Shown: positions 13,678 to 54,000, counted from the first letter of the stretch. The stretch: DNA of 64,000 bases from Mytilus trossulus (GCF_036588685.1 NC_086382.1:50261378-50325377); one strand, 5' to 3'. The notes: generated from the letters alone by a model not told the origin. A program made the numbers and translations.

Positions 13678-14275
13678 TTGTCTAGCTTGTTATATGTTTC
13701 TGGTTTATTTACAGAGTACACATGTTGTTTGTAATGACCCAGAAAAGGCAGATATCAGTTACAAATGTAAAATGGCCACAAAGTATGGATTACCAGTAGT
13801 GTCACTTGATTATATCCATGATTGTGTAGACCAGGGGAGATTACTCAATACAGATAATTACATCCTTGTTGTCTAGTTTGTTATATGTTTCTGGTTTATT
13901 TACAGAGTACACATGTTGTATGTAATGACTCAGAAAAGGCAGATATCAGTTACAAATGTAAAATGGCCACAAAGTATGGATTACCAGTAGTGTCACTTGA
14001 TTATATCCATGAGTGTGTAGACCAGGGGAAATCACTCTGTTGTCTAGCTTGTTATATATTTCTGGTTTATTTACAGAGTACACATGTTGTATGTAATGAC
14101 CCAGAAAAGGCAGATATCAGTTACAAATGTAAAATGGCCACAAAGTATGGATTACCAGTGGTGTCACTTGATTATATCCTTGATTGTGTAGACCAGGGGA
14201 GATTACTCAATACAGATAATTACATCCTGGTTGGAAAGACAAAGTCACAAGAATTCAGCAGTGGCAAAGTACCAG
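13678..14275 (+). repeat. PARP4: tandem triplication of a unit comprising the intron 3' end (acceptor) plus the BRCT-coding exon
   Basis: Units begin at 13678, 13869 and 14039. Each has ttatttacag followed by AGTACACATGTTGT... Only copy 3 continues to a GTAAGT donor (14276). Copy 2 is truncated and copy 1 ends without a canonical donor. Confidence 0.75.
14077..14275 (+). CDS. PARP4: PARP4-like exon 2 (BRCT: STHVVCNDPEKADISYKCKMATKYGLPVVSLDYILDCVDQGRLLNTDNYILVGKTKSQEFSSGKVP); alternative upstream copies at 13715-13864 and 13906-14035
   Basis: Phase 0 in, phase 1 out. Matches human CTHIILDNADV...IREKRLLDVKNY. Confidence 0.6.
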
Positions 14276-14282
14276 GTAAGTA

Positions 14283-14810
14283 TTTATGCCCCTGCCATAG
14301 GGGAGGGGGCAATAAAATTTACCCTTGTCTGTCTGTACCTCAGTCCATACATACATGTAGGTCCCACAGTTGCTTTCCGTTCTCTAACTTTATTTTGCCT
14401 CAACCAACTGTTATGAAACTTATACACAATGCTTAATACCACCAATTACAGATCAAGTTTGAATTTTGGTGGTGTCACTTTAACTTTTCTAGAGTTACAA
14501 ATGTATGCCCCTTTACGAATGAAAACATTTCTGAATTTTTGTTTCCATTCTCTAACTTAAGTTTGCCTCAACCAAATAGTATGAAACTTTATAATACACA
14601 ATGCTTATTACATGTACAACAAAATACAGATCAAGTTTGAATTTTGGTGATGTCACTTTAACAGTTCTAGAGTTATGCCTCTTTACAAATGTTATAAAAC
14701 TTATTACTACAAACCCAGATCAATAACAAATTTGGAAAGTATCACTTTTGCCATTCTTCAGTTATGTCCCTTCATATGATATACAAGTGGGGGCATAATC
14801 TGTGTCCCAT
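14283..14810. mobile_element. non-autonomous element with termini TATGCCCC...GGGGCATA and internal tandem repeats of about 180 bp
   Basis: tatgcccctgccatagggg at 14283 and gtgggggcataatc at about 14800. Internal units at 14380-14760. Begins 8 bp after the exon-2 donor. Confidence 0.45.
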
Positions 14811-15358
14811 GGACACGTTCCCAATTTATTTATTTTTAAATTGGATAATTATTAAAAACAAAAGAAGTTTTTATCGGTATTTCTCGTTAACTTATTAACT
14901 TTTAACTTGGGTTGGCATATCTTTTATCATTTTTCTGTGACATGAAATTGTGTAACCTGATAAAAAGGTATACCAAGGAGAGTACATCAGCCTCCCTCAA
15001 TAGGAGATCACTCTGACCTACATTTAACATTTTATCTACAATCACATCTTGTAGAATAAAGTAGACTCCATGAAAATAAATGACTCTAAACTAGATTTTA
15101 TACTTCAATGACTCTATTTAGTTTTATCTCCAAAGTCATAGGTTTAAAGTTTCCTGATATTATATGAAGAATTGTTTGGTTATATATGTATAGGAATGTA
15201 GCAGTATCTGGCAAAAAGGGCACTAAATTTTACATTATAATTTATTTTGTAGACAATAAGTGACTTTTGGTTCAAGGGGAGATAAGTGCTGTTATATGTA
15301 TCTTCAGTTTTGATAAATTAATTTATTTACATAACCCTGTTACTGTATTATTTTGTAG

Positions 15359-15501
15359 CAAGCAAGTATCAAAGTAAAGATGTGACAAAGAAGAAAATCA
15401 AAATAGATCCCAAAGGTGTTAAAGTGTGGCACCCTGGTAATAAAAATTCACCTGATTACAATGAGGAGAAATATGAAGTGGCCAAGTTTGCTATGTTTCA
15501 G
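15359..15501 (+). CDS. PARP4: PARP4-like exon 3
   Basis: ASKYQSKDVTKKKIKIDPKGVKVWHPGNKNSPDYNEEKYEVAKFAMFQ. Acceptor tttgtag, donor GTAATA. Phase 1 in, phase 0 out. Confidence 0.6.
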
Positions 15502-16432
15502 GTAATACTATTTACCAATTATCACAATTTGATATTTGTATTAATTCATACATGATACATAATGATTGCAGTGAGTGCTATTAAAGCAATGTATTTTGAT
15601 TTTTTTCAGATTAAATTTCTTGTAATTTTCAATTATTTTTTAAGAGGCCTATTCTTTTTAGTTTAAAATAATGGAGAATGCAAAGGAACAATTGTTGTAT
15701 AGTTTGATCGGCCTTACTCTGTTACATTTGTATGTCAATCTGTGTTTAAGGAGGCTCCTGGGTACAAAAATTTTAGCAAAAAATTAAACCTTTACTTTTT
15801 CATTACAAATTTTATTTATTACACTATAAGTTGTTACTTTATGACATGGTACAAAAAACAACCCACAAAAATGATTTGGTTTGGCCCCAGATGACTTTAA
15901 AACTTGAAAAAGCTCCAAATTATCTCCCTTTGGTGCGAAAATGCCATTTTTTGGCCTTAAATTTGAAATATCTTGTTTAACTCATCGGTGACCTATATTT
16001 TTTATTATTGTTTTCAAATAAGCTGTACATAAACTAAATTATTGTAAAATTTAAGCGATTTTTTATATTAGGTTATTTTTTTATTTCGATATTTCCTCTT
16101 TTTCTCCTATTAGTTCAACAGAAAAAAAGGACATTAACAAAAATGTATGCTTTTTCCAGAGGCAGATTTTAGCTTAAATGAACGGTGACCCCATTTTTTT
16201 ATTTCATTTTTCTTTTAAGTATATGATAAAGTTCAGTTATGAAAAAATATAGCGAAATCCTATATTAGAAAAAAAAAATCATTTATACCCAGGAGCCCCC
16301 TTAAGGGCTGGAAGTTTTTTAAAGTGTTTTAAAGAACTATAAAATAGTACCATTCTTTTTCTATTTATTAGAAACCTTTTTGTTTTATCATCCAAAATAA
16401 AATGAAGGTTCTATGAAGATTTTATATTTCAG

Positions 16433-16567
16433 AAATATGACAAGTTAAAAGAGACCACGCTGTTTTATAATTTGGAGATACATGTAGCTGAGCCGGTGGA
16501 TTTGAACAGATCAGACTGTTATAGATTCAGGATATATTCACACTATGGTTCTACACAGGACATACAG
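16433..16567 (+). CDS. PARP4: PARP4-like exon 4
   Basis: KYDKLKETTLFYNLEIHVAEPVDLNRSDCYRFRIYSHYGSTQDIQ. Acceptor tatttcag, donor GTAATG. Confidence 0.6.
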
Positions 16568-16864
16568 GTAATGCTGCACATAAATTATCAATCAATAATA
16601 ATACATTTCTTGTATTTTAAATATAATCAAAAGCATTCATCTGTTTCATAGTGGATCACAAGACCAGGTAGAGTGAGTTTTACTTTTGCACTTTAATTGT
16701 ACTAAATGTATTTAAAGATAGGGATTTTGCATTTTCAGAAAGGTATTACACTGTTGAATAGCACTTAAGATTGTATGAAAGTCATGGAAAAAGGCAATTT
16801 AAATTTTCAAAACCAAAGTAATAATCTTAAAGATGAAGTGGACAGAAAATTCACAGATTCAGTC

Positions 16865-17150
16865 TTTTTTACCTGTCCTAAGTCAGGAATCTGATGTACA
16901 GTAGTTGTCGTTTGTTTATGAAATATATACGTGTTTCTCATTTCTCGTTTTTTATAAAGATTAGACAATTGGTTTTCCTGTTTGAATGGTTTTACACTAG
17001 TAATTTTGGGACCCTTTACAGCTTGTTGTTTGGTGTGAGCCAAGGCTCTGTGTTGAAGGCCATACATTGACCTATAATGGTTTACTTTTTTAAATTGTTA
17101 TTTGCATGGAGAGTTGTCTCATTGGCACTCACACAGCATCTTCCTATATC
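16865..17150 (-). mobile_element. SINE family A copy (core gatgtggtatgattgccaatgagacaactctcc), minus orientation
   Basis: Reverse complement of the core at 17100-17140. Confidence 0.6.
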
Positions 17151-17220
17151 TATTTTTGTTATTTTTAGGAAGTTGGCAGTCAACAAAGTAACCTACCTAA
17201 TAATAAATTTTTATTTCCAG

Positions 17221-17373
17221 GAAGCTGTTGTGGAATATCGCTATATCATTACATCAGATGATGCTCTACATGTGTATGCTTATCTGTATACTGAACAGTC
17301 AAGACCTCCACGTAATATGAATGTCATTTATCAGCCAATGATGAGAAATATTGGATCTAGAAAATTTCAAAAG
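17221..17373 (+). CDS. PARP4: PARP4-like exon 5
   Basis: EAVVEYRYIITSDDALHVYAYLYTEQSRPPRNMNVIYQPMMRNIGSRKFQK. Phase 0 at both ends. Confidence 0.55.
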
Positions 17374-20300
17374 GTATATCATTTTGTTAAACAGATAATT
17401 GTATCATTAATAAAGTAAATTTTGATTTAAATAAATATATAGAAGTTTAACTTTTAAATCTTGAGAAGGACATAAGAAAGTGATGAATTCAAAGATAATG
17501 ATGCATGTTCACACAGTAATATGTGTGTGAAGAATTATTGAAATCTGTGGATGATGCTTTGATAATAAAATAAATGCTTTAAAGGGAAACTTCGCAAAAA
17601 ATCAAAAATTGATATTATGTCCATTCTGTATAAAAATGCTCAAATTTATAAATATTAAAGTTTTATTCCGCTAGATAAGAGATCACCATCGATTTTAAAT
17701 TTTGAGTATCAGTTCTCTGCCTTCCGCCATTTTGTTATCTTGTCCAAATAAAAATCCCGATATGTCTATAAACCACAAAGACACAAAACTACAGTAACCG
17801 ATGTAGTCTTTATTACGTGATGATATCTTGTCAATCGTACGATTGTTTTATCTGACTAACTAACTTGATACGGAAAATGTTCTTATTTTTTTAATAACCA
17901 TATAGTCTGTTATTTTTAAACTGTTAATATTGGAATTAGTTAAAAAGTCAAAGTTCAAATCATAAATAAGTGTTCCGTGAAAATTGTTTTCGAAAATCTA
18001 ATTCGTTCATAATTCTTTAAAGTAATATACTTTATTCAAATAAATTAGGATCTTCGCTCCACTGGTCACCCGCATGGCTTAAGGTATTACTCCCAAAGGT
18101 ATTGTGAGGGGTGTAAGGTGACACGTCCAGGTATTCAAGCGATTTCCTGTCGGGCTTGCAAGTTCATGCATCGTTTCACTTCTGTAGGTATTGATCAGTG
18201 TACACGGCCGATAACTTATAACTTTCCATTTTGAACTATCAGGTGCATTTATAATATACATCTCTGTCTTGCGTGTCCGAAAGTGATGTAATATACTAGT
18301 CATTACTTAACTCATACGCTTGTTTATAAATAAAATTTCTATTGTAAAGAATATTATTTAAAAAAAAAAAAATGATACAAAAAAAAAAAAAAAATGGAGA
18401 TATACAAATATACGCATTTTTTCCAAGGGTTAATTTGGGAAAATCAGAGACATATAATTGTATTATATGTCTCTGGGAAAATGTAATATTTACTCGTTGT
18501 CAATAGTAATGGACATAGTTGGATCATTCCAGAAATGTTGATAAAAAAAATGTGCGCACTTGTCGACGATTCGTTTATACGCCCGGATAGAAAGTTACGG
18601 AACTACAGCGCAATTTAAAATGTATACATGTATACATTGAAAGAAACATACCTTTTGTGCAAATTGGGGTAAAAGTTTTGTAAATAGACTAGTCCACGTA
18701 TACCAACAGTATGTAATCATCCAATTCGATAGACTATCATATACCAAAAGAAGAAGAAGAAGAGGACCAATTTGATTTAAATACAGGTCGATCTATAACT
18801 TGCTTTGGTTCATCGAAGTTATGAACATAGTAAAATCACAGATTTATATATCAATTAGATTGTTCTCGAATAATAGATTGTTCTCGAATAAAGAAAGAAA
18901 TTTGTCATCACCATAATTGTTCCGACATATGCACCTGGACGTACACTAATAATCCCCGAAGGATGTGAATATTTTCTAGGAAAGCTATTGAGTATTAAAG
19001 TTTCAAATCATTTTCGGGATTTATTTTCTTTCTTGATATTCAATGACAGCAAATTTAAAGAATAAACTGCTTGTCAGATATTTGTCCGCTTTAGGGGTAT
19101 TCTTGCCAGTTGAACAGACTTATAATTACATTCAAAAATAGGGAAAGATGACATTAAATTCGTTGTCTTTTGTTTTTAAACATCTTTGGTCAAATAGTTA
19201 TTAAGTATTATACGTTGTGAGACGAAGACTATTTTAATAAGGACGTCCCCGATTATGATTAAATTTGGTTGACCTTTTTCACACTTGATAAAAAAATATC
19301 TATTCGTAATTTTTCGATTCCTTTCCAAGAAGACCTTAAATTTGCTGTCAATTTTTTAAAACTTCTCAAGTAGAAAAATATTTTTTCTTTATTCGTTCAT
19401 ATTATATTCTACTTCGGTAGAGTTATCTTCAGTGAGTTCCAGTTATTAATTTATACGTGGCTTTTAAAAAGTCTAAATCTAAGTGTTCTCATTCATTTAT
19501 TTGCCTAATAAAGACAAATAAAAATACTTTGGTAAAGCTATTTATAATTTCTAAGTACTCCTTTTTATTAGACATCAATCAAGGACAAAAGGTGTAAATC
19601 ATTTTGATCGGACATATGATTTAAGTTTCCCTCTTTAACCGAAAATTGTGTATTTCTTAGTAAATTAACTTATTTAGATTCAAATAAATAATAGCACAAA
19701 ACATAATTAAATAATTCCACGGCGATCAATTTTTATTTGTCACCAACTTGAATATATATTTTAAATATGTATATTGAATGCTCCCTTGTCTTATAATTCA
19801 CTGATCCGAATAGACAGTCACACCTGGCAAAGTGTGCCCGAGAGGCGTGGTTAAATACCGAAGTGCAAATAACAATTTACCTTTCAACAAGCCATCTACG
19901 AGTATTGCCACAGAACCGTGAATACACACATCCTATCAACCAAGTCATAGCAGAGATAGTAAAAGGTCGATAAGAGTACACCAACATATTGTCTTTACAG
20001 ATTATTGTTCTTTACTTTGTTCACCTTATCAGTCCGAAAATATATTAATTAAAAATAAATTTATAACTTTTTGTGTTGTCTACAAAAATAATTCGAATAT
20101 ATACGTTTAACATAGAAAATTTATCTCATGAATATGTACAATTGAATGTCTGTGCGTTTTATCTTCTTATTATCGGATGGTTATTTAGATAAAGCATAAG
20201 TCATCGGCGCGCTTACGATTACGTTAAAATATGATTAAAAACCAAGACTTTTAATGATTGTATTTTAAATCCCGGCATGCAAAAACCAGGAGAAAACGTC

Positions 20301-20731
20301 ACGACCTACAGGAAGTAGTTAATATTTTTTCATTAAATATTGAATTTCTCCTTTATTACTGCACATATAGCGATAAAACTTTGTGAATATATATATTATG
20401 TCATAATGAACATATTTAAACCATAAGTAAAAAATCGTGAATTTTCCCTTTAATGACCATCATATACATTGAGTTTCAGAGGTATGGCCTTTTCATTGTT
20501 ATATTTGTGTTTTAGGTAATTATATCTTTTCACCAAAACACAATTTGCTTTTGGAATATACAAATCTATGAATACAAATTTAGTTGTTTTAAGCTAGTTT
20601 CATTTTAGATTTTTTTTATTGATTTTATGCCTTTTATATCAAAGAATTTCATGAAGTTTGAAGGTTCACACTTGAAGTTTGACATGATAACTACCGGGTA
20701 AGTCTGATTGCATTAAATGTAAATTTTGTAG

Positions 20732-20869: not shown

Positions 20870-20885
20870 GTAAGTATATTTAAAA

Positions 20886-23708: not shown

Positions 23709-23873
23709 ATGATTAAAGATATGGTAGCTGTGAGTGAGTCTACAAACTGGTCGACCAGAAGTAGTACGGAGGCCAAGTATAAAGCATTACGATGTAGACT
23801 GGATGGTTTAGAGATTACAGATACAGAATATAAACAGATCAAGGAACACATTATACAGTCTCTAAAACAGTTG
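23709..23873 (+). CDS. PARP4: PARP4-like exon 8
   Basis: MIKDMVAVSESTNWSTRSSTEAKYKALRCRLDGLEITDTEYKQIKEHIIQSLKQL. Human counterpart is LIRDMVNVCETN...LAKYRALRCKIEHVEQNTEEF. The donor is taken as TTG|gtatta and is uncertain by a few nt. Confidence 0.6.
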
Positions 23874-26728: not shown

Positions 26729-26912
26729 TACCAGTATACAGTACTCAGACCAAAGTAAATGTAAGGGAACCAGGATGATGCTAGTCAGTAATGTTGCCCT
26801 TGGCAACTGTAAAGATTTCACAGAATACCACAAAGATCTACAGGGGCCTCCAGAGGGGTATGATAGCTGTCATGGTGTAGCGTCATCAGAAGAGCAACCA
26901 TCAGAATTCAAG
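26729..26912 (+). CDS. PARP4: PARP4-like exon 11 (TSIQYSDQSKCKGTRMMLVSNVALGNCKDF...PPEGYDSCHGVASSEEQPSEFK)
   Basis: Human counterpart is SIKYSHPGETDGTRLLLICDVALGKCMDL...APPGYDSVHGVS. Confidence 0.7.
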
Positions 26913-27739
26913 GTATAAAATCAGAGGCAAATGCACCTTCTATGTTGTGATGAAATTGAAAATAACTATCCTAATGTTTTGGGTGGTTTTTATACCCCCG
27001 CTTTACCCGCTTTAAAAAAGGGGGTATACTGTTTTACCTCTGTCTGTCTGTCCGTCAGTCCGTCCGTCAGTCCGTCCATCAGTCCGTCCATCAGTCCGTC
27101 CGTCAGTCAGTCCGTCCCATGAAACTTTCGTCACATTTTTCTCAGGAACTTACAATATAAGGATTTCTGAAATTTGGTTTCAGGGTTTATCTAAGTCACC
27201 TATACCGTGTGATGCGTTTTCAGATTGATCACTTGACAACTTCCTGTTTACCGAACACTTGTATGATTTTATACATGATAGCCAAGTTGAAAATTTTCGT
27301 CACATTTTTCTCAGGAACTACAATACAAGGATTTCTGAAATTTGGTTTCAGGGTTTATCTAAGTCAGGTATACCGTGTGATGCATTTTCAGATTCATCAC
27401 TTGACAACTTCCTGTTTACCGAACACTTGCATATTTTTACACTATTAATATTATCCACTTGCGGTGGGGGTATCATCAGTGAGTAGTAGCTCACAGTTTA
27501 CTTGTTATTATTGATCTTTTGCATTAGGATATACTCCAAAAAACTTTTCCTTTCTTTTAAGAATATGAATAAATTCACCACTTTTGACTTATTAAAAATC
27601 TAAGCAAGGTAAATAATTCTTTGCAGTTAATCCAGTTTCAGCTAATTTTGAAATAGAAGGTACAATGTCCAATGAATGTTAAGCAGGGGTTCTGATCCCG
27701 AATCCCACTTACTGTTTTGTAAGATTCCCTGTATCCCAC

Positions 27740-29029
27740 TTGCACTACATGTATGTAAGTAACCAATTCTCTTTTTGTCGAGCCTTCGACTTTAGTCGAA
27801 AAAGCGAGACTAAGCGATCCTACTTTCCGTCGGCGTCTGCGGCGGCGGCGGCGTCAACAAATATTCACTCTGTGGTTAAAGTTTTTTATACGACCGCTTC
27901 AAAATTTTCGTCGTATATTGCTATCACGTTGGCGTCGTCGTCTGTGCGTCGTTGTCGTCGTCGTCGTCGTCGTCGTCCGAAAATACTTTTAGTTTTCGCA
28001 CTCTAACTTTAGTAAAAGTGAATAGAAATCTATGAAATTTTAACACAAGGTTTATGACCATAAAAGGAAGGTTGGTATTGATTTTGGGAGTTTTGGTCCC
28101 AACATTTTAGGAATTAGGGGCCAAAAAGGGCCCAAATAAGCATTTTCTTGGTTTTCGCACTATAACTTTAGTTTAAGTTAATAGAAATCTATGAAATTTT
28201 GACACAAAGTTGATGACCACAAAAGAAAGGTTGGGATTGATTTTGGGAGTTTTGGTTTTAACAGTTTAGGAATTAGGGGCCAGAAAAGGGCCCAAATAAG
28301 CATTATTCTTGGTTTTCGCACAATAACTTTAGTTTAAGTAAATAGAAATCAATGAAATTTAAATATAATGTTTATGACCACAAAAGGAAGATTGGTATTG
28401 ATTTTGGGAGTTTAGATCCAAACAGTTTAGGAATTAGGGGCCAAAAAGGGACCCAAATAAGCATTTTTCTTGGTTTTCGCACCATAACGATAGTATAAGT
28501 AAATAGAAATCTATGAAATTTAAACACAAGGTTAATGACCATAAAAGGAAAGTTGGTATTGATTTTGGGAGTTTTGGTCCCAACAGTTTAGGAAAAAGGG
28601 GCCCAAAGGGTCCAAAATTAAACTTTGTTTGATTTCATCAAAATTGAATAATTGGGGTTCTTTGATATGCCGAATCTAACTGTGTATGTAGATTCTTAAC
28701 TTTTGGTCCCGTTTTCAAATTGGTCTACATTAAGGTCCAAAGGGTCCAAAATTAAACTTAGTTTGATTTTAACAAAAATTGAATCCTTGGAGTTCTTTGA
28801 TATGCTGAATCTAAAAATGTACTTAGATTTTTGATTATTGGCCCAGTTTTCAAGTTGGCCCAAATCGGGGTCCAAAATTTAACTTTTTTGATTTCATCAA
28901 AAATTGAATAAATGGGGTTCTTTGATATGCCAAATCTAACTGTGTATGTAGATTCTTCATTTTTATACGACCGCAAATTTTGAAAAAATTTTCGTCGTAT
29001 ATTGCTATCACGTTGGCGTCGTCGTCGTT

Positions 29030-29062
<33 letters not shown>

Positions 29063-32000
29063 CGAATACTTTTAGTTTTCGCACTCTAACTTTAGTAAAA
29101 GTGAATAGAAATCTATGAAATTTTAACACAAGGTTTATGACCATAAAAGGAAGGCTGGTATTGATTTTGGGAGTTTTGGTCCCAATATTTTAGGAATTAG
29201 GGGCCAAAAAGGGCCCAAATAAGCATTTTCTTGGTTTTCGCACTATAACTTTAGTTTAAGTTAATAGAAATCTATGAAATTTTGACACAAGGTTTATGAC
29301 CACAAAAGCAAGGTTGGGATTGATTTTGGGAGTTTTGGTTTCAACAGTTTAGGAATTAGGGGCCAAAAAAGGGCCCAAATAAGCATTATTCTTGGTTTTC
29401 GTACAATAACTTTAGTTAAAGTAAATAGAAATCAATGAAATTTAAACACAATGTTTATGACCGCTAAAGGAAGGTTGGTATTGATTTTGGGAGTTTCGGT
29501 CCTAACAGTTTAGGAATTAGGGGCCAAAAAGGGACCCAAATAAGCATTTTTCTTGGTTTTTCGCACCATAGCGTTAGTATAAGTAAATAGAAATCTATGA
29601 AATTTAAACACAAGGTTTATGACTATAAAAGGAAGGTTGGTATTGATTTTGGGAGTTTGGGTCCCAACAGTTAAGGAAAAAGGGGCCCAAAGGGTCCAAA
29701 ATTAAACTTTGTTTGATTTCATGAAAATTGAATAATTGGGGTTCTTTAATATGCCGAATCTAACTGTGTATGTAGATTCTTAATTTTTGGTCCTGTTTTC
29801 AAATTGGTCTACATTAAGGTCCAAAGGGTCCAAAATTAAACTTAGTTTGATTTTAACAAAAATCAAATTCTTGGGCCTCTTTGATATTCTGAATCTAAAC
29901 ATGTACTTAGATTTTTGATTATGGGCCCAGTTTTCAAGTTGGTCCAAATCAGGATCTAAAATTATTATATCAAGTCTTTTCAATTGCACAGTATTGTGCA
30001 ATGGCAAGAAATATCTAATTTCACAATATTGTGAAATAGCAAATTTTTTTTTAATTAAGAGTTATCTTTCTTTGTCCAGTAAAGTAAGCAAGAAATATCT
30101 GCAAGATTTTTTTTTAATTGGAGTTATCTTTCTTTGTCCAGAATCAACTTAAATCTTTGTTATATACAATATACAATGTATATTCACTTTTTACTACCAA
30201 CTGATAAATTTAAATAATCTTTACCATTCAGTGATAACAAGCAGTTTTTTTACATCTTAATATTTTATGATGTATTTAAATGAGTAGTAATTGTTGCAAA
30301 CTTCATTAGAATATTTTAATTGAAATTAGTTTTGGAATAAGGGAGAGGGGGATGTGATTAAAAAATTGGGTTCAAATTTTTCTCATTTGAAATTTCATAA
30401 ATAAAAAGAAAATTTCTTCAAACATTTTTTTGAGAGGATTAATATTCAACAGCATAGTGAATTGCTCTAAGAGAAAACAAAAAAATTAAGTTCATTTGAA
30501 TACATTCATTCTGTGTCAGAAACCTATGCTGTGTCAACTATTTAATCACAATCCAAATTTAGAGCGGAATCCAGCTTGAATGTTGTGTCCATACTTGCCC
30601 CAACTGTTCAGGGTTCAACCTCTGCGGTCGTATAAAGCTACGCCCTGCGGAGCATCTGGTTGGTCCTGTTTTCAAATTGGCCTACATTAAGGTCCAAAGA
30701 GTCCAAAATTAAACTAAGTTTGATTTTAACAAAAATTAAATTCTTGGGCCTCTTTGATATGCTGAATCTAAACATGTACTTAGATTTTTGATTATGGGCC
30801 CAGTTTTCAAGTTGGTCCAAATCAGGATCTAAAATTATTATATTAAGTATTGTGGAATAGCAAGTCTTTTCAATTGCACAGTATTGTGCAATGGCAAGAA
30901 ATATCTAATTTCACAATATTGTGAAATAGCAAATTTTTTTTTAATTAGAGTTATCTTTCTTTGTCCAAAATAGTAAGCAAGAAATATCTTATTGCAAGAA
31001 TTTTTTTTAATTGGAGTTATCTTTCTTTGTCCAGAATCAACTTAAATCTTTGTTATATACAATATACAATGTATATTCACCTTTTACTACCAACTGATAA
31101 ATTTAAATAATCTTTACCATTCAGTGATAACAAGCAGTTTTTTTACATTTTATTTACAGTTTATTTTATGATGTATTTAAATGAGTAGTTATTGTTGCAA
31201 ACTCCATTAGAATATTTTAATTGAGATTAGTTTTGGAATAAGGGAAAGGGGGATGTGATTAAAAAATTGGGTTCAATTTTTCTCATTTGAAATTTCATAA
31301 ATAAAAAGAAAATTTCTTCAAAAATTATTTTGAGAGGATTAATATTGAACAGCATAGTGAATTGCTCTAAGAGAAAACAAAAAAATTTAAGTTCATTAGA
31401 ACACATTCATTCTGTGTCAGAAACCTATGCTGTGTCAACTATTTAATCACAATCCAAATTAAGAGCTGAATCCAGCTTGAATGTTGTGTCCATACTTGCC
31501 CCAACCGTTCAGGGTTCAACCTCTGCCGTCGTATAAAGCTACGCCCTGCAAAGCATCTGGTTGAAATTTTAATAACTTTCTTAAACTATAATGGATTTCT
31601 ACCAAACTTGGACAGAAGCTTGTTTATGATCTTAAGATAGTATCCAGAAGTGAATTTTGTAAAAATAAAATTCAAATTTTTCCAAATTTTACTTATAAAT
31701 GGACTTAGTTTTTCTACGGGGAAACATTACATTCACTCTGTGGTTAAAGTTTTTAGAATTTTAATAACTTTCTTAAACTATCCTGGGTTTGTACCAAACT
31801 TGGACAGAAGCTTGTTTATGATCATAAGATAGTAACCAGAAGTAAATTTTGTAAAATAATAAATCCATTTTTTCCATATTTTACTTTTAAATGGACTTAG
31901 TTTTTCTGCGGGGAAACATTACATTCACCCTGTGGTCAATGGTGGTTAAAGTTTTTAAAATTTTAATAACTTTCTTAAACTATCCTGGGTTTGTACCAAA

Positions 32001-32250
32001 CTTGGACAGAAGCTTGTTTATGATCATAAGATAGTATCCAGAAGTGAATTTTGTAAAAAAATAAATCCATTTTTCCGTATTTTTCTTTTAAATGAACTTA
32101 AATTTTCTTCCAGTTAACCATACATACATGTACAGTCTGCAGTTGTTTTTAAAACATTTATTAGATTCATAAACTATCCTGGATTTTAACCAAACTTAGA
32201 CAGAAGCTTCTTAAAATCAGAAGATTGTATCAAGAGGAATATTTTTATTG
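27740..32250. repeat. nested repeat/TE cluster: (GCG/CGT)n microsatellites, TTTTATACGACCGC-type termini, 180-bp tandem arrays (28010-28620, 29120-29700), a 650-bp direct duplication (29950-30660 vs 30840-31560), and a 190-bp tandem array (31560-32250)
   Basis: Read directly: 27880-28965 is similar to 28965-29950; ttttatacgaccgc at 27880 and 28965 versus the inverted gcggtcgtataaag at 30625 and 31523. Confidence 0.6.
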
Positions 32251-32515
32251 ATTTTTTTCCGTATTTTTGTTGAACCTGCGATTTACAGCAAAAGTAGGCG
32301 AGACACCGGGTTCCGGGGAACCCTTACAACTTTTTTTTGTAATTTCCCGTGTCCCACTAGACTTTATTTCCAGTTTTCATGGCACAATAATTTGACTTTC
32401 AGGTGTCATGCTTATAACAAATCAGCCAATGCCGAGTCACACTTAGACCCCAATGAAGTATATAACTTTCTATTTAGAATTAGCTGTAGAATAAATAATT
32501 TGTCTTTAAATACAG

Positions 32516-35250: not shown

Positions 35251-35406
35251 GATGTATTTACAGTCAGTGTGGGTAATCTACCACCAGGGTGTGTGGCCCT
35301 CATCAAGATAACTTATGTATCAGAATTACAAGTAGAGGGAGAATTGATTAACTTTACAATTCCTGGATCTGTGGCTCCTTGGAAACAGGGACCCAGTAAT
35401 ACTGAG
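35251..35406 (+). CDS. PARP4: PARP4-like exon 15 (DVFTVSVGNLPPGCVALIKITYVSELQVEGELINFTIPGSVAPWKQGPSNTE)
   Basis: Human counterpart is DVFTVSVGNLPPKAKVLIKITYITEL...ATVAPWQQD. Confidence 0.8.
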
Positions 35407-35692
35407 GTAAGGGAGGTAATCTACCACCAGGGTGTGTAGCCCTCATCAAGATAACTTATGTATCAGAATTACAAGTAGAGGGAGAATTGATTAACTTTAC
35501 AATTCCTGGATCTGTGGCTCCTTGGAAAGAGGGACCCAGTAATACTGAGGTAAGGGAGGTAATCTACCACCAGGGTGTGTAGCCCTCATCAAGATAACTT
35601 ATGTATCAGAATTACAAGTAGAAGGAGAATTAATTAACTTCACAATTCCTGGATCTGTGGCTCCTTGGAAACAGGGACCCAGTAATACTGAG
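35407..35692 (+). repeat. PARP4: two extra tandem copies (143 bp each) of [first 8 nt of intron + last 135 nt of exon 15]
   Basis: gtaaggga + GGTAATCTACC...ACTGAG repeated at 35407 and 35550. The copies differ from the exon at a synonymous GTG-to-GTA site. The 143-nt length would shift the frame if the downstream donors were used. Confidence 0.8.
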
Positions 35693-36943
35693 GTAAGGGA
35701 GGTATTCTATAATATGGGGCTCTCATTATGGGTCTGATCCAGGATCCTGTTTATTGTTTTGTCAGATTAAAGAAGCCCACTTATCATTGTAATAAGTCAA
35801 TGGAGATAATTGGGACAACACCTCAAAATGAGGAACTCAAAAGTCATGTGTAAAGAAAAATCTCTGTGTAGTGAAATTGGACATGTTTCTATTTTTTTCA
35901 AATGACTGAGCTTAACCATTTGTGGTGATTAGGAAAGTAAAGAAACAAAGAATAAATTTGTAAAAACTATGGAGCTATTGAATATGTTCAAAGTATTAAA
36001 ATTTTCAAAGAACTTATTGTGTTAAAAAGGGGATACTTTACCACAAGGAGCCGCATCAAAAAGGATGTTCGGAGAATGCTAATTTACGAAAAAAGTAATC
36101 TCACTTCGTACCTTGAAAATTTAACCACATATGTTAAAATGTCACAAAAAAAGCTATCCTACATATCCAAGTTTACGATATGGATTAAGCTACAGGAAAA
36201 AACGTTACCATTACCGCCTATGAAAAAACAATAAAAGATATTGACCCAATTGCAAATAGACTGAGACAATGTGTTTGTCCCTAGATATGTTTTGTGCCAA
36301 AAATACAAGTCGTTCAATCTACAGTTCAAATGCTTGTTACAGGGAGAATGAGAAGGATAGACAATTAATACATAGAGAATAATACATGGCAAAATCCGTA
36401 TTATATGTTGTATCATCCCGAGACATCAATATCAGCCCAAGGGCCTTTAGGCCCGAGGGATGATATTGGTTGAGGGTGATACGGCATGTGATATGGATTT
36501 TGCCATGTATTATACGCTTTATCATATATTTCAACAGAAGAGTATTATATTATATGAACTGTTATCTGATCCATAGCACTGGGTTACCTTCAGTTCTGCA
36601 TTTGTCTTGTTTCAAAGCCTTAAAATAACTGCTCAATTATTTATACGAAGCACCTGGATTTTGCCATGTATTATCCTTACAATCTGTTGTTTTAAAAATA
36701 TTTTGTTTATTATTGTATTTATTTGAGTATTTTGTATTTTTTATACATGTATAGTTGCATTCAGTGTACCAAAAAATATGTTGTGAAAACTTATGTTCAT
36801 GACGTCACATACAATATTAAACTTGACGTTCGTGACGTTACATACCAAACAATGACGTCATTAAAAAAATTGACCTATTTTAAGGATTTTTTTCTTAAGC
36901 CAAAAATAAACAAAAACTGACTTCATGTAAAAAAAAAAAAAAA

Positions 36944-37020
36944 AAAAGGTATGCCATACGGGGTATGCGATACGGATTTAGCTATGCGATACAGGTATGC
37001 GATACAGGGTAAGTGATACA
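36944..37020. repeat. (GGTATGCGATACAG)n-like minisatellite
   Basis: ggtatgccatacggggtatgcgatacgg...gctatgcgatacaggtatgcgatacagggtaagtgatacag. Confidence 0.7.
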
Positions 37021-37363
37021 GACTGGAAAAACGAACCTTTATTAGATATACAAAATAGCTGTATTTTGTACTAAATATATGATAACGGAGTATATATAAC
37101 TGCTTGATTTCTTGGTTCTGTTTGTCAGTAGAGAAGCAGAAAGCCTATAAAACTGATGTAAAAGAGATAACTTAGAGTAAAGGGAGAGAAATATTAATGA
37201 CTTTATTATAATCTCTTATGAAAAAGGAAATCTGCATCCAAGAATAAATTGGAATAGTTTAAAGTTGCAAGAGTACCCATGAATTTCTGTATTCTTGGAC
37301 CTGGTAATGTTTTTTGTTGTACCAAATAAAAAAGAGTAATGTGAACGATTACTATATTTTCAG

Positions 37364-37456
37364 AGTTCAGAAGACAGTTGTAGTATACAAGTCTCCGTAC
37401 AGATGCCATTTGACATCAGAACTATAACATGCCCAACACATCAAATTAGAAAAAAG
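37364..37456 (+). CDS. PARP4: PARP4-like exon 16
   Basis: SSEDSCSIQVSVQMPFDIRTITCPTHQIRKK. Human counterpart is SFSLTMSIEMPYVIEFIFSDTHELKQKRT. Confidence 0.6.
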
Positions 37457-46457: not shown

Positions 46458-46566
46458 TAACAAATAACATTTTACTGCTTAATATATATGTGATGTCATT
46501 GTACATCTTTAAACGTTATGTTGATCATTTGATATATCACGGGGCTAATTAATTCTTTGTTTACAG

Positions 46567-47253: not shown

Positions 47254-47413
47254 GGTTTCTGGCTAAGGAAATTTTTGCAAACAAATGCAACAGCTTTAAA
47301 TTTTAAATAGGAGCCAACCTTCCCCTTAACCTGAAACAATAGTGTTACATCCCAACATATAAAGTCACACTATACAATATCAATTGAAATGGCTTTAATT
47401 TTGTATATTATAG

Positions 47414-47494
47414 GCTACATTGAAGGCAGAAATAGGTGGGCAACAAATATCAACAGTAGTATATACATCAGAATTAAGTTTGACGAAAGGAAAG
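47414..47494 (+). CDS. PARP4: PARP4-like exon 23
   Basis: ATLKAEIGGQQISTVVYTSELSLTKGK. Human counterpart is ATLCALIQEKEFRTMVSTTELQKTTGT. Confidence 0.65.
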
Positions 47495-48504
47495 GTAAAA
47501 ATTAAATAACAATTTTGAAATTTACAAGGTGCTACATATGTGTTTTACAATAGTAGGTATGAGAGCAGAGTTATCATCCTTTGCTTTTCTTTTTCTACAA
47601 ATATAGTCTCTAGTGTGGACAGTGTATAACTTGCAATGTTTTTTTAGACTTTTTATAATTTAGATAAATTATTTACATTGTTATAAATCAAATATGAGTA
47701 TATGAGTCAAATGTAGGAACATGAATTTAACAGCTAGTGCCCCTTCAATTCTTGAATACTATATTCATATGTATATTGGTAGATATAGTTATACTTAAAT
47801 GACCAGATAATGTTAAAATAAGTTCTGAAGAAAATTTAAAAGCGTAATTTCAAAAGTGTTAAAAGCAATGTTTCTGATACAAATCACTATATTAAGGGGG
47901 CTTGCGGGTCTAAATCATTTTTTTTTTTTATTTAATATAAGTTTTCAATAATTTTTTCTATAAATGAACTTTATCTTATATCTAAGAGAAAAATAAAATA
48001 AAAAAGAGGGGTCACCGATCATTTACGCTCACAAAATGCCTTCGAAAGAAGCATACATTTTTGTAAAGGTACTTTTTTTTTTGTTGAACTAATAAGAGAA
48101 AAAGAGGTAATATCAAAATAAAAAAAACATCCTAATTACAGAAATCGCTTAAATTTTACAATTATTTAGTTTATGTATAGCTTATTTGAAAACAATAATA
48201 ATAAATATAGGTCACTGATGAGCAAAAAAAAATATTTTAGTTTTAATGCCAAAATATAGCATTATTCACCAAAGGGAGATAATTTGGAGCTTTTTCAATA
48301 ATACAAACATTTTAAAAGTCATCTGGGGCCAAACAGAATCGATTTTTTGGGTAAATTTTTGTATCCTATCATAAAGTAGTAACTAATAGTGTAATGAATA
48401 GAATTTGTTATGAAAAAACAAATGTTAAATTTTTTGCCGAAATTTTTGTACCCGCGAGCCTCCTTAAATCATCAAATATGAAAGTGTACCTTTAACATTG
48501 ACAG

Positions 48505-48585
48505 GTTCTTCACTGCTTGACTGCTAAAGCTGTGATCAGAGACTGGGAAGATGGAGTACTCTCCCCTGACAGTATTGACCATCAG
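48505..48585 (+). CDS. PARP4: PARP4-like exon 24
   Basis: VLHCLTAKAVIRDWEDGVLSPDSIDHQ. Human counterpart is IHKLAARALIRDYEDGILHENETSHE. Confidence 0.7.
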
Positions 48586-48725
48586 GTAAATATATACTTT
48601 ATAATAGAGACTGGAAAGATGGAGTACTCTCCCCTGATAGTATTGACCATCAGGTAAATATATACTTTATAATAGAGACTGGGAAGATGCAGTACTCTCC
48701 CCTGATAGTATTGACCATTATGTAT
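48586..48725 (+). repeat. PARP4: two extra tandem copies (69 bp each) of [first 24 nt of intron + last 45 nt of exon 24]
   Basis: gtaaatatatactttataatagag + ACTGG.AAGATG.AGTACTCTCCCCTGA.AGTATTGACCAT repeated. The copies carry a synonymous GAC-to-GAT change. Confidence 0.75.
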
Positions 48726-49215
48726 GCTTTATAATAGAGCTGACCCTACATGCAATAGATATTATCACTTCTAACTTTCATCACACTTAGTAAAATGATA
48801 AATACAGGGTATCTTAGATAAAAGTATTAAAAAGGGTACAGATTTGACATACAAAAAATTCTGAGAAACTTCATGACTGATCTTAGTGCAAAAACATCAT
48901 GGCTAAACGTGATGTCATACAAATGAAAACTTACAAAATGAAGGTTATTATGTTACCTCTACGATTCAAATTTAATTTGAATAAAATTACATTGAAACAA
49001 AGAAATCGAGGTAGGTGTTGTTTTACTTTCGATAATTTTGTAGTAATAGAACATTTGTTGATCAAATCAAATAAAAAAACTTAGTTACGCCTGGTCAACT
49101 GTGGATTTGACGGTAAACTGTTAGCCAATGAAAAAAATCATTACATACTTATCGCATTAGAAATGTACTTCATCTGGACTATTTCTTCAACTTGCATTCA
49201 ATTTCTATATTTTAG

Positions 49216-49317
49216 TTAAAGAAGATGAATATGAAAGACTATATAATAGAACTGAGTAAGAAATATTCCATTGTTACACAGCTGACAAGTTTTATTGCTG
49301 TAGAGAAAAGAGAAAAG
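49216..49317 (+). CDS. PARP4: PARP4-like exon 25
   Basis: LKKMNMKDYIIELSKKYSIVTQLTSFIAVEKREK. Human counterpart is LKSLIIKLSKENSLITQFTSFVAVEKRDE. Confidence 0.75.
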
Positions 49318-50149
49318 GTAATACTGAAATTTTGTGTATAAAAAAAACAGACAAAATTTTTCCGTAGTCATCTCAAAGTCTTGTTGCTGATTGCTTGAAT
49401 TACCTATTTATGAATCTCCCAGTAAAATAACATATCTTACACAAAAGTGATAGACCACATAAAACATGTTATTCTATTTACAAATATGCACACTGTTTAA
49501 AAAAAATATACCTAATACTTTTGTTCTTTTATTAATGTTAAGGTGAACTTAGGTGAAAATAAAAAAAATCAAGAATTAAAAATTGATACTTTAAGTCAAA
49601 TGAGTCTACCTTAAGAAACAAAATCAGCTTAAAATATTGATAGGTTAAGGAGATCCTTTTCAAGATATTTGATTTATAAAAAATGGGGTAAATGGTTACC
49701 TTATATTTGCATTGGTATTAGTTGGGTTTCAAATCAAAAGAAAAGAAATCAAGAATTTGCTAAAACTTTGGTAAATCATGGCTTTCATGAGCTATAAAGT
49801 CCTATATGAAAAGAAAAATGGGCGTAATGGGGCAAAATATGTTACCCTGCATATTAAAAAACAAGGAACATCTGACATCTTTTCCTAAACTGCACCCAAG
49901 TACATCCTTAATGTAAAATTAAAATAAAACTTGATGAAATGTTATGTTCAGGCCTGTAGCCAGGAATTTCCAAAGATGGTGTTATTTTGACTCACTAACT
50001 CGACTTTAACAGTCACAATTCAAACAGAACGTTGACTTTAACAGTGCTTATTTGTTTTCAAGGGGGTAGGTTGTACGAACCTATGAACCCCCTGGCTATG
50101 GGTATGATGTTAACATCTTTATATTGTGGATCATTAACTGATTATGATT

Positions 50150-50600
50150 AATTTTTATGCCCCACCTACGATAGTAGAGGGGCATTATGTTTTCTGGTCT
50201 GTGCCTCCGTTCGTTTGTTATCTGTCCAATCACTTTTGGTCAAGGTAGTTTTTGAAGAAGTTGAAGTCCAATCAACTTGAAACTTAGTACACATGTTCCC
50301 CATGATATGATCTTTCTAATTTTAATGCCAAATTATAGCTTTGACCCCAATTTTATGGTCCACTGAACATAGACAATGATAGTGCGAAGTTCAGGTTAAA
50401 GTTTTTGGTCAAGGTAGTTTTTGATGATGTTAAGGTTACATCAACTTGAAACTTGAAACTCAGTACACATGTTCCCTATGATATGGTCTTTCTAATTTTA
50501 ATTCCAAATTAGTTTTGACCCCAATTACACGGTCCACTGAACATAGAAAATGATAGTGCAAGTGGGTGATCCGTGTACTATGGACACATTCATGTTTTAG
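50150..50600 (+). repeat. repeat family B copy
   Basis: tttatgccccacctacgatagtagaggggcattatgttttctggtctgtgcctccgttcg ... gtccactgaacatagaaaatgatagtgcaagtgggtgatccgtgtactatggacacattc. Confidence 0.65.
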
Positions 50601-51019
50601 AAATGATATAAAATCTGTCTTCTGCAATTGATGTATCCAACCTGAGTCACTGTCATTATATCTAACAGATATTTTTTAAAAAGATTCAACTATTTCTAAA
50701 ACTTGGGAATATGTATGTGGCTTCTCAAAATCCTGAAGAGATCTAATATATTGAAAAATTTTAGAATGATTTTTTTTATTGTGATGGATTTTTGATTAAT
50801 TGACAAAATTGGAAGATTAATTATTTAAATTTTTAAATACAAATAAAACAAGCAAAATTTGAAAAAGAAGTTTTCATTTTTGCAAAGCTTATACTGTTGC
50901 AATTTTCTCAATATTAAAAACATCACAAATTATATCTGAATTTACTGTTTTAAAAGCAACACATTTATGAAGGCTGTCTTGATTATATACACAAACATTT
51001 TAAAAGCCTCTACTTGTTT

Positions 51020-54000
51020 GTTAAAGATTGTTTATTAAACATTTGTAGGATGAGGTAATATTGTCAGAGGGATCATTTATATTAGAGTTAGTTGATAGTT
51101 TGTTAGAGATTGTTTATTAAACATTTGTAGGATGAGGAAGTATCGTCAGAGGGATCATTTATATCAGAGTTAGTTGATAGTTTGTTAGAGATTGTTTATT
51201 AAACATTTGTAGGATGAGGTAGTATCGTCAGAGGGATCATTTATATCAGAGTTAGTTGATAGTTTGTTAGAGATTGTTTATTAAACATTTGTAGGATGAG
51301 GTAGTATCGTCAGATGGACCTTTTATATCAGAGTTAGTTGATAGTTTGTTAGAGATTGTTTATTAAACATTTGTAGGATGAGGAAGTATCATCAGATGGA
51401 CCTTTTATATCAGAGTTAGTTGATAGTTTGTTAGAGATTGTTTATTAAACATTTGTAGGATGAGGAAGTATCATCAGATGGACCTTTTTTATCAGAGTTA
51501 GTTGATAGTTTGTTAGAGATTGTTTATTAAACATTTGTAGGATGAGGTAGTATCGTCAGAGGGATCATTTATATCAGAGTTAGTTGATAGTTTGTTAGAG
51601 ATTGTTTATTAAACATTTGTAGGATGAGGAAGTATCATCAGATGGACCTTTTATATCAGAGTTAGTTGATAGTTTGTTAGAGATTGTTTATTAAACATTT
51701 GTAGGATGAGGTAGTATCATCAGAGGGATCATTTATATCAGAGTTAGTTGATAGTTTGTTAGAGATTGTTTATTAAACATTTGTAGGATGAGGTAGAATC
51801 GTCAGATGGACCTTTTATATCAGAGTTAGTTGATAGTTTGTTAGAGATTGTTTATTAAACATTTGTAGGATGAGGAAGTATCATCAGATGGACCTTTTAT
51901 ATCAGAGTTAGTTGATAGTTTGTTAGAGATTGTTTATTAAACATTTGTAGGATGAGGTAGTATCATCAGATGGACCTTTTATATCAGAGTTAGTTGATAG
52001 TTTGTTAGAGATTGTTTATTAAACATTTGTAGGATGAGGTAGAATCGTCAGATGGACCTTTTATATCAGAGTTAGTTGATAGTTTGTTAGAGATTGTTTA
52101 TTAAACATTTGTAGGATGAGGAAGTATCATCAGATGGACCTTTTATATCAGAGTTAGTTGATAGTTTGTTAGAGATTGTTTATTAAACATTTGTAGGATG
52201 AGGTAGTATCGTCAGAGGGATCATTTATATCAGAGTTAGTTGATAGTTTGTTAGAGATTGTTTATTAAACATTTGTAGGATGAGGTAGAATCGTCAGATG
52301 GACCTTTTATATCAGAGTTAGTTGATAGTTTGTTAGAGATTGTTTATTAAACATTTGTAGGATGAGGAAGTATCATCAGATGGACCTTTTATATCAGAGT
52401 TAGTTGATAGTTTGTTAGAGATTGTTTATTAAACATTTGTAGGATGAGGTAGTATCGTCAGAGGGATCATTTATATCAGAGTTAGTTGATAGTTTGTTAG
52501 AGATTGTTTATTAAACATTTGTAGGATGAGGTAGAATCGTCAGATGGACCTTTTATATCAGAGTTAGTTGATAGTTTGTTAGAGATTGTTTATTAAACAT
52601 TTGTAGGATGAGGAAGTATCATCAGATGGACCTTTTATATCAGAGTTAGTTGATAGTTTGTTAGAGATTGTTTATTAAACATTTGTAGGATGAGGTAGTA
52701 TCGTCAGAGGGATCATTTATATCAGAGTTAGTTGATAGTTTGTTAGAGATTGTTTATTAAACATTTGTAGGATGAGGTAGAATCGTCAGATGGACCTTTT
52801 ATATCAGAGTTAGTTGATAGTTTGTTAGAGATTGTTTATTAAACATTTGTAGGATGAGGAAGTATCATCAGATGGACCTTTTATATCAGAGTTAGTTGAT
52901 AGTTTGTTAGAGATTGTTTATTAAACATTTGTAGGATGAGGTAGAATCGTCAGATGGACCTTTTATATCAGAGTTAGTTGATAGTTTGTTAGAGATTGTT
53001 TATTAAACATTTGTAGGATGAGGAAGTATCATCAGATGGACCTTTTATATCAGAGTTAGTTGATAGTTTGTTAGAGATTGTTTATTAAACATTTGTAGGA
53101 TGAGGTAGTATCGTCAGAGGGATCATTTATATCAGAGTTAGTTGATAGTTTGTTAGAGATTGTTTATTAAACATTTGTAGGATGAGGAAGTATCATCAGA
53201 TGGACCTTTTATATCAGAGTTAGTTGATAGTTTGTTAGAGATTGTTTATTAAACATTTGTAGGATGAGGAAGTATCATCAGATGGACCTTTTATATCAGA
53301 GTTAGTTGATAGTTTGTTAGAGATTGTTTATTAAACATTTGTAGGATGAGGTAGTATCGTCAGAGGGATCATTTATATCAGAGTTAGTTGATAGTTTGTT
53401 AGAGATTGTTTATTAAACATTTGTAGGATGAGGTAGAATCGTCAGATGGACCTTTTATATCAGAGTTAGTTGATAGTTTGTTAGAGATTGTTTATTAAAC
53501 ATTTGTAGGATGAGGAAGTATCGTCAGATGGACCTTTTATATCAGAGTTAGTTGATAGTTTGTTAGAGATTGTTTATTAAACATTTGTAGGATGAGGAAG
53601 TATCATCAGATGGACCTTTTATATCAGAGTTAGTTGATAGTTTGTTAGAGATTGTTTATTAAACATTTGTAGGATGAGGTAGTATCGTCAGAGGGATCAT
53701 TTATATCAGAGTTAGTTGATAGTTTGTTAGAGATTGTTTATTAAACATTTGTAGGATGAGGAAGTATCATCAGATGGACCTTTTATATCAGAGTTAGTTG
53801 ATAGTTTGTTAGAGATTGTTTATTAAACATTTGTAGGATGAGGAAGTATCATCAGATGGACCTTTTATATCAGAGTTAGTTGATAGTTTGTTAGAGATTG
53901 TTTATTAAACATTTGTAGGATGAGGAAGTATCGTCAGATGGACCTTTTATATCAGAGTTAGTTGATAGTTTGTTAGAGATTGTTTATTAAACATTTGTAG
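51020..54000 (+). repeat. PARP4: tandem array of about 38 copies of a 78-bp unit, where each unit is the intron 3' end (ttgttagagattgtttattaaacatttgtag) plus the first 47 nt of exon 26 (GATGAGGAAGTATCATCAGATGGACCTTTTATATCAGAGTTAGTTGATAG)
   Basis: Read directly. At least three unit variants (GAGGAAGTATCATCAGATGGACC, GAGGTAGTATCGTCAGAGGGATC, GAGGTAGAATCGTCAGATGGACC) alternate in a higher-order pattern. The last unit runs straight into the authentic exon 26. Confidence 0.9.

Follow-up and report, generated by a model that had tools for sequence, protein, structure and literature searches.

The 64,000-nucleotide (nt) stretch of Mytilus trossulus DNA analysed here (GCF_036588685.1 NC_086382.1:50261378-50325377), hereafter the window, is AT-rich and eukaryotic and contains a PARP4-like gene of 27 coding exons on the plus strand, between positions 10916 and ~56256. 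The gene (paralogue ‘B’) carries four tandem arrays composed of units that each cross one of its splice junctions, with the copies arranged head-to-tail and in register. Arrays 1–4 contain 3, 3, 3 and 37 copies, respectively. The presence of four junction-straddling arrays in a single PARP4-like gene had been proposed in a first-pass annotation of this DNA. It is confirmed by Tandem Repeats Finder (TRF) and by a gene model built independently of that annotation from open frames, splice signals and homology, and the exon numbers 15, 24 and 26 agree between the two.

By its domain order and full-length similarity, the gene belongs to PARP4 (vault poly/mono-ADP-ribosyltransferase). The predicted product contains, in order, the Pfam domains BRCT (E = 2.5e-12), PARP (1.4e-29), VIT (1e-36) and VWA_3 (8e-20), and its residues 1–1213 are collinear with residues 3–1217 of human PARP4 (chain 11jf_P; E = 1.3e-242). 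A whole-protein search identified ‘PARP4-like [Mytilus trossulus]’ (XP_063404518.1; 99% identity). Translation of the window exons reproduces this protein exactly when the donor at 23869 and the alternative last exon at 54380, in which the RefSeq model ends, are used; the window is therefore the M. trossulus RefSeq locus of XP_063404518.1. About 14 residues of human PARP4 are absent between exons 15 and 16 (35406–37364). The RefSeq model also lacks these residues, so their absence is a feature of the lineage and not an overlooked micro-exon.

The four arrays and the splice sites they carry

Arrays were called with TRF and then read copy by copy in alignments (Table 1). The arrays and their borders are directly visible in the sequence, and each unit comprises one junction together with 49–146 nt of an 81–199-nt exon. 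Arrays 1 and 4 duplicate the acceptor side of an exon, and arrays 2 and 3 duplicate the donor side.

Table 1. Positions of the PARP4-like gene, its arrays and the functional copies of the affected exons, counted from the first letter of the window
Feature	Position	Strand	Composition or basis	TRF call
PARP4-like gene, paralogue B	10916–56256	+	gene model, Pfam domains, human PARP4 alignment, RefSeq identity	
Array 1, acceptor type	13665–14233	+	three copies: ~45 nt intron 3' end + first 146 nt of exon 2 (BRCT)	13665–14233, period 191/171, 3.1 copies
Exon 2, functional copy	14077–14275	+	second half of BRCT domain, 199 nt	
Array 2, donor type	35272–35709	+	three copies: 135 nt exon 15 3' end + 8 nt intron (gtaaggga)	35272–35709, period 143, 3.1 copies, 97% match
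Exon 15, functional copy	35251–35406	+	VIT domain	
Array 3, donor type	48538–48739	+	three copies: 48 nt exon 24 3' end + 20 nt intron	48538–48718, period 68, 2.7 copies
Exon 24, functional copy	48505–48585	+		
Array 4, acceptor-type minisatellite	51016–54050	+	37 units of exactly 82 nt: 33 nt intron 3' end + 49 nt exon 26 5' end	51016–54050, period 82, 37.0 copies, 96% match, 0% indels
Exon 26, functional copy	54001–54097	+		

The copies of array 1 span ~13677–13868, 13869–14039 and 14040–14233, with acceptors immediately preceding positions 13715, 13906 and 14077. The middle copy is 171 nt in length and lacks 20 nt. The first-pass annotation had correctly recognized three copies that include the 3' end of the intron, but had assigned the whole BRCT exon to the unit, of which only the first 146 of 199 nt are duplicated. 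For array 2, its description of the unit and of the copy number holds without change. The three copies (35272–35414, 35415–35557 and 35558–35700) place donors after 35406, 35549 and 35692, and the array extends a further 9 nt into a direct repeat, GGTATTCTA. Differences between the copies of array 2 fall at five sites that would be synonymous and one that would be non-synonymous, so that an earlier statement that the copies differ from the functional exon at synonymous sites applies to the five and fails at the sixth. Outgroup sequences place the origin of two of the five synonymous differences in the functional exon's own lineage, and copy 2 shares one of these two.

Array 3 comprises copies at 48538–48605, 48606–48673 and 48674–48735. 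Its unit can be read as 48+20 nt or, given an AGAG overlap at the border, as 44+24 nt of exon and intron; the three copies reported previously are present, and the reported division of 45+24 nt is not. An intact decoy donor follows position 48653, and the third donor is degraded (CATTATGTATGC). Array 4 was correctly identified as the 3' end of an intron joined to the start of exon 26, with 37 units and 49 nt of exon in place of the ~38 and 47 first estimated. The intron portion of each unit ends in ...tttgtag. Thirty-six decoy units are followed by the functional unit (53968–54049), which continues into the remainder of exon 26. The array contains no indels, its unit variants recur, including in a C-A-B higher-order pattern, and the units at its start most resemble the single-copy sequence of M. 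galloprovincialis and M. edulis.

Divergence between copies differs among the four arrays and ranges from 1.4 to 14% (1.4–3.5% in array 2). Together with differences in unit, borders and distribution among assemblies, this bears out the view that the arrays are independent of one another and are not trivial stutters. None of the four units recurs elsewhere in the window, and comparison with ~420 kb of related loci yields only the homologous exon of a PARP4 paralogue. A transposon origin of the units is ruled out by this absence of dispersed copies. A search against Rfam returned no matches.

Every unit carries a splice site, and the arrays therefore create decoy donors and acceptors, as the first-pass annotation had stated. 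The decoys have a local sequence context identical to that of the functional site, with the exception of the degraded third donor of array 3. The annotated mRNA, as judged from XP_063404518.1, enters exons 2 and 26 at the last acceptor of arrays 1 and 4 and leaves exons 15 and 24 at the first donor of arrays 2 and 3. At each array, this is the one site that preserves the reading frame. Use of any other site is predicted from the sequence to introduce a premature stop in all cases except one. In array 1, splicing to the acceptor of copy 1 would lead to a stop, and splicing to that of copy 2 would insert 57 residues (171 nt, in frame and free of stops). The decoy donors of array 2 would add 143 or 286 nt and shift the frame, as was predicted for the 143-nt unit, and the decoy donor of array 3 would add 68 nt with the same outcome. 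In array 4, any upstream acceptor would lead to a TAA stop within the next unit. RefSeq contains a single model for the gene, with no array-derived sequence or exon.

The coding sequence was compared with that of L006/L007 (M. galloprovincialis ‘Lola’), L009 (a M. galloprovincialis chromosome assembly) and two M. edulis contigs (L008 and L003). Purifying selection is evident. The ratio of non-synonymous to synonymous substitution rates (dN/dS) is 0.10 between the window gene and L009, L008 and L007, with dS ~0.155, and all 27 exons are intact in the window and in L008 and L009, the latter two being free of gaps and stops. Relaxed constraint or pseudogene status of the window gene is ruled out by these values. 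The L003 copy lacks exons 1–7 and exon 26 and has many 1–2-nt gaps in its exons. Its dN/dS is nevertheless 0.12, and these defects therefore probably reflect poor polishing or a damaged haplotype and not long-term decay.

We consider it very improbable that the arrays are merely tolerated in a decaying paralogue, or that the decoys are selected to throttle expression through nonsense-mediated decay or to supply a BRCT isoform with the 57-residue insertion of array 1. In favour of these readings, a second complete PARP4 paralogue lies nearby, and the L003 copy is incomplete and rich in indels. The length of copy 2 in array 1 is exactly 171 nt, an open and in-frame sequence, and all other decoys are predicted to lead to premature stops. 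These points are countered by the strong constraint measured against three orthologous sequences and, in L003, by a dN/dS that remains low in spite of indels resembling poor polishing. The arrays are also missing from most haplotypes and so are not conserved features, and the single RefSeq model contains nothing derived from them.

Copy number in other Mytilus assemblies

Comparison with orthologous loci, which had been suggested as a check on the arrays, reveals extensive variation in copy number. L007, L008 and L009 are single-copy at all four sites. L003 has two copies at array 2 and three at array 3, array 4 is absent from it, and it provides no value for array 1. Across five assemblies or haplotypes from three Mytilus species, copy number at the array sites thus varies between 1, 2–3 and 37. 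Array 3 of L003 has borders identical to those in the window and shares with it a GAT decoy variant and the gtaaatatatac tail. In array 2 of L003, the decoy is interrupted by a tRNA-like short interspersed element (SINE) of ~355 nt (14548–14902), and both arrays in this contig have decayed, through the SINE insertion in one decoy and through small deletions. Arrays 2 and 3 recur in an independent M. edulis assembly and are therefore not artefacts of the M. trossulus assembly. The two arrays are polymorphic for copy number within the Mytilus complex.

Arrays 1 and 4 are found in the M. trossulus assembly alone. False expansion, or stitching of haplotypes in a highly heterozygous genome, is the alternative raised in the first-pass annotation, and we regard it as very improbable for the set as a whole. 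It draws on the single-copy state of the orthologues in three other assemblies, on the restriction of arrays 1 and 4 to the M. trossulus assembly, for which searches found no second data set from the species, and on the divergence within array 2, which falls in the allelic range. Stitching of haplotypes predicts two copies, however, and not 3 or 37, and the array borders coincide with pre-existing direct repeats. The decayed M. edulis copies, with the same borders, rule out an artefact at arrays 2 and 3. At array 4 an artefact is unlikely, because this array maintains a perfect 82-nt register and has structured variants, and because its first, oldest-looking units are nearest the outgroup state. 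Comparable private arrays are present, moreover, in two further assemblies produced by other groups.

The first of these additional arrays is in L007 (7568–11454) and consists of 38 copies of a 100-nt unit containing 78 nt of the exon 7 3' end and 22 nt of intron. The corresponding sequence is single-copy in the window, L008 and L009. The second is in L009 (19448–19607), where two copies, 97% identical, of an 80-nt unit (12 nt of intron 3' end and 68 nt of exon 11) occur; all other sequences have one. A putative 21-nt ‘array’ that overlaps the acceptor of exon 9 in L009 was judged to be a weak 10-nt direct repeat and was not counted. The exon 7 array sits where the deposited M. galloprovincialis annotation splits the gene into two models. 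A naive gene finder likewise reads through arrays 1 and 2 of the window, and arrays of this type are thus a hazard for gene annotation.

Two further sequences, L001 and L002, were considered as orthologues from another genus; they are more likely to represent the paralogue and were not used for dating. Members of the matching Logan cluster are C-terminal fragments of a fused M. galloprovincialis model. An exact search of metagenomes from the Joint Genome Institute for the repeat junctions of arrays 4 and 2 gave no match.

Origin of the arrays and the question of junction bias

Short direct repeats, in register, are already visible at the future borders of arrays 1–3 in single-copy alleles. At array 2, GGTAATCTA occurs twice, 143 nt apart, with a perfect match (9/9 nt) in the single-copy L009. 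The border repeat of array 1 is imperfect (ATTATCATCTTTGTTG and ATTATATCCTGGTTG; ~15 nt, about 13/16 matching, 191 nt apart), and that of array 3 is AGAG(A)CTG, with 4–8 nt in L009. Polarization by outgroups also reveals the order of events at array 2. The end of the exon was duplicated and the functional copy then acquired a synonymous change; a second duplication copied this changed version, after which the functional exon and copy 2 each gained one more change. This stepwise history explains why most differences between the copies appear synonymous. Together, the border repeats and the history of array 2 fit the pattern predicted for duplication by slippage or microhomology followed by unequal exchange. 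The lack of indels in array 4, its higher-order blocks and the location of ancestral-type units at its far end are typical of unequal exchange.

We propose, with a probability of roughly two in three, that the four arrays are genuine and independently formed tandem duplications of variable copy number, similar to variable number tandem repeats (VNTRs), in a functional and constrained gene, and that a slippage-type origin accounts for them with no need for a process targeted to junctions. In each case, a segment of 68–191 nt that by chance contained one splice junction would have been duplicated, in arrays 1–3 through slipped-strand or microhomology-mediated mispairing between short, imperfect flanking direct repeats. 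Unequal exchange between sister chromatids or alleles may then have raised or lowered the copy number, reaching 37 at exon 26. A unit with one splice site and part of an exon would leave a complete exon at the edge of the array, bordered by the first donor or the last acceptor, so that a normal mRNA could still be made. Duplications within exons or of whole exons, by comparison, would mostly be purged by selection. Four arrays in one gene would then represent the upper tail of a high background duplication rate in Mytilus genes, of the kind that a scan for oddities is likely to pick up. Tandem arrays are indeed abundant in Mytilus introns; a 53-nt unit in 81 copies and a 32-nt unit in 14 copies are found in the PARP4 paralogue.

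Replication slippage and unequal crossing-over were both named in the first-pass annotation, and the border repeats and the structure of array 4 make them the best-supported mechanism. The splice-site-proximal hairpins with which slippage had been linked there find no such support. DNA folding of the ancestral junction windows of arrays 1–4 gives z-scores of -0.24, -1.24, 0.01 and -1.41, and these windows rank 23, 7, 27 and 6 in stability among the 52 junctions. Folding of the units gives z-scores of +0.59, -0.13, -1.55 and -2.31, and none of their stems exceeds 6 bp. Slippage driven by hairpins was rejected, as no junction window is an outlier in stability and the units fold no better than shuffled sequences, apart from weak stems in array 4.

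Several observations weigh against our proposal. The homology at the border of array 4 is 1 nt only; slippage between direct repeats therefore does not account for the start of this array. The choice of splice sites rests on one annotation, and the copy number of arrays 1 and 4 on one assembly. Exon sequence makes up most of the unit across the six junction arrays (mean fraction 0.77; p = 0.008 relative to a uniform expectation). Finally, junctions are hit more often than expected by chance. As a null model, a duplication of each unit length was placed randomly in the collapsed gene, and placements in exon interiors or covering whole exons were dropped, giving a probability of 0.09–0.18 per event that a junction is included. 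All four of the unique short-unit arrays in the window straddle a junction (expected 0.53; p = 2.6e-4), as do 4/6 when two unique intronic arrays are added (expected 0.74; p = 0.0022) and 6/21 in a pooled set of unique arrays from the window, the other haplotypes and the paralogue (expected 1.8; p = 0.006).

The gene was chosen for its arrays, and sequences outside that choice were therefore tested. In the replication set excluding the window, 2 of 15 arrays straddle a junction (expected 1.07; p = 0.29), and in the other B haplotypes, 2 of 9 (expected 0.57; p = 0.10). When every array in the window is counted, including those borne by transposons, the proportion is 4/13 (expected 1.77; p = 0.087). 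The p-values shift with the choice of arrays that are excluded as transposon-borne, a class that has dispersed copies. Paralogue A contains 14–15 tandem arrays in each of two species, none of which straddles a junction, and the only two repeats that overlap an exon lie inside the last exon of L004. Junction enrichment is thus nominally significant in the window (p ~0.0003 to 0.09, according to the arrays counted) and non-significant in sequences that played no part in selecting the gene; it does not demonstrate the locus-specific process put forward in the first-pass annotation. Junction-spanning duplications are best read as an expected by-product of a high local duplication rate, with the four in this gene as an ascertained extreme. 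A true two- to four-fold excess at junctions is possible.

Such an excess would be expected if exons or their junctions were themselves hotspots for tandem duplication. On this reading, divergent Mytilus haplotypes, like the tandem PARP4 paralogues, are similar only as far as the exon borders. Recombination or repair synthesis initiated from exon homology might run a few nt into non-homologous intron and re-anneal out of register. The second complete paralogue (A) has 85% protein identity to B and is located upstream on the same M. edulis contig. Comparison of the window with L004/L005 reveals a mosaic of 72–99% nucleotide identity per exon, in which similarity ends 0–9 nt from every exon border. 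Exon 8 is 99.4% identical, exons 2, 4, 9, 11, 13 and 22 are 95–97% identical, and exons 3, 5 and 12 are 72–75% identical. This mosaic, with its limits at the exon borders, suggests recent gene conversion restricted to exons at the PARP4 locus.

The exon-rich composition of the units, with short intron tails of 8–45 nt, the close match of unit to exon length in the window arrays (84–96%; 191/199, 143/156, 68/81 and 82/97) and the apparent exon-limited exchange keep the idea of exons as islands of homology alive. The occurrence of arrays at six different junctions of one gene across five sequenced haplotypes, and the nominal junction excess in the window and pooled set, would also be accommodated, as would the intron tail of array 3 copy 3, which belongs to a different haplotype class from those of copies 1 and 2. 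We nevertheless judge a junction- or exon-centred process to be unlikely. The excess weakens in data free of the initial choice and shifts with the handling of transposon-borne arrays, and paralogue A, with its 14–15 tandem arrays per species, has none at a junction. Exons that carry arrays are not preferentially those that appear to be gene-converted, and no clear association between the two was found. The decoy tails are of the gene's own type, and the paralogue is therefore not the direct donor. Direct copying of the decoys from the tandem paralogue was rejected on the same grounds: both the decoy variants and the intron tails are of the B type, and similarity to the paralogue ends at exon borders. 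The related claim, that exons or junctions are true duplication hotspots in Mytilus because divergent haplotypes and tandem paralogues pair only within exons and abort a few nt into the intron, yielding splice-site VNTRs, is marginally more doubtful still.

Genomic neighbourhood and relation to known systems

Intron 11 (26900–32500) contains a cluster of transposon-type modules in which repeats of 161 nt and 135 nt come after a (CGT)n or (GTCC)n microsatellite. Duplication has also affected the cluster as a whole, with one period of 1077 nt (94%) and another of 873 nt (93%), and its modules are also present in L003, L004, L007 and L008. Intron 1 includes interleaved local duplications that are wholly intronic (11715–12919), with 97% identity between 11715–11910 and 12435–12630 and 100% between 12255–12447 and 12727–12919. 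Upstream of the gene, positions 1–4000 hold two tandem partial copies of a reverse-transcriptase open reading frame resembling that of a long interspersed element, and two arrays of a 24-nt unit, in inverted orientation, are located at 5618–6065 and 6709–6966.

A calmodulin-like gene (~57.9–60.0 kb) and a Snf7/CHMP4-like gene (~60.6–63 kb) follow downstream on the same strand. The M. galloprovincialis and M. edulis models fuse both with PARP4. Possible explanations are that these two genes lie inside a longer transcription unit of PARP4 or that the models were merged in error. The C-terminal MVP-interaction domain is not present in the 1253/1213-residue products encoded in the window. The fused models place this domain (PARP4_MVP-ID) downstream of the calmodulin-like and Snf7-like genes, beyond the window.

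If the arrays are as assembled, they provide natural alleles in which an authentic 3' or 5' splice site is present in 1, 2, 3, 37 or 38 identical copies, and this under strong purifying selection on the gene. Such alleles would constitute a test of how the spliceosome chooses among identical sites and of how much unproductive splicing can be tolerated. They would also be raw material for intron gain by tandem duplication at several junctions simultaneously. A real junction bias would be of greater importance, if true, and is not established here.

The nearest known parallel is internal tandem duplication across an exon–intron boundary, a discussed route to intron gain, and the case of the potato RdRp gene shows that splice signals are inherited by the copy. 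The PARP4 arrays resemble this system in that part of an exon and the adjoining intron end are duplicated head-to-tail, the copy inherits the parental splice signals, and the frame can be kept. In PARP4, the duplicated segment supplies splice sites in every array, and copy 2 of array 1 is the only one that could be included in frame. Unlike intron gain, the PARP4 case involves no known use of a new intron or exon, and the annotated mRNA ignores the decoys. The duplications also affect several junctions of one gene, and two of the arrays contain 37–38 copies instead of 2.

The arrays share with genic minisatellites and VNTRs a unit length of 68–191 nt, a copy number that varies from 1 to 37 among haplotypes, higher-order structure in the large array, and an origin and growth compatible with slippage and unequal exchange. 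Intronic VNTRs typically exert their effects by means of spacing or binding motifs. The PARP4 units differ in that each contains an entire splice site together with some coding exon, which makes every copy a potential decoy. A human catalogue (spl-TR) reportedly lists tandem repeats associated with splicing variation. Tandem exon duplication, which gives rise to mutually exclusive exons, likewise involves local tandem copying of exon sequence; no PARP4 unit, in contrast, has both splice sites, and none can serve as a cassette exon. Satellite-bearing transposable elements of bivalves contain arrays of ~160-nt units adjoining a microsatellite. Their periods are similar (135–192 nt) and the introns of the PARP4-like gene are rich in them, but their units are dispersed at many sites in the window and in related loci, whereas the junction arrays consist of unique gene sequence. 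The PARP4 arrays are thus splice-junction VNTRs of a known kind, somewhat unusual in the number of junctions affected and in the occurrence of two ~37-copy arrays in a constrained gene.

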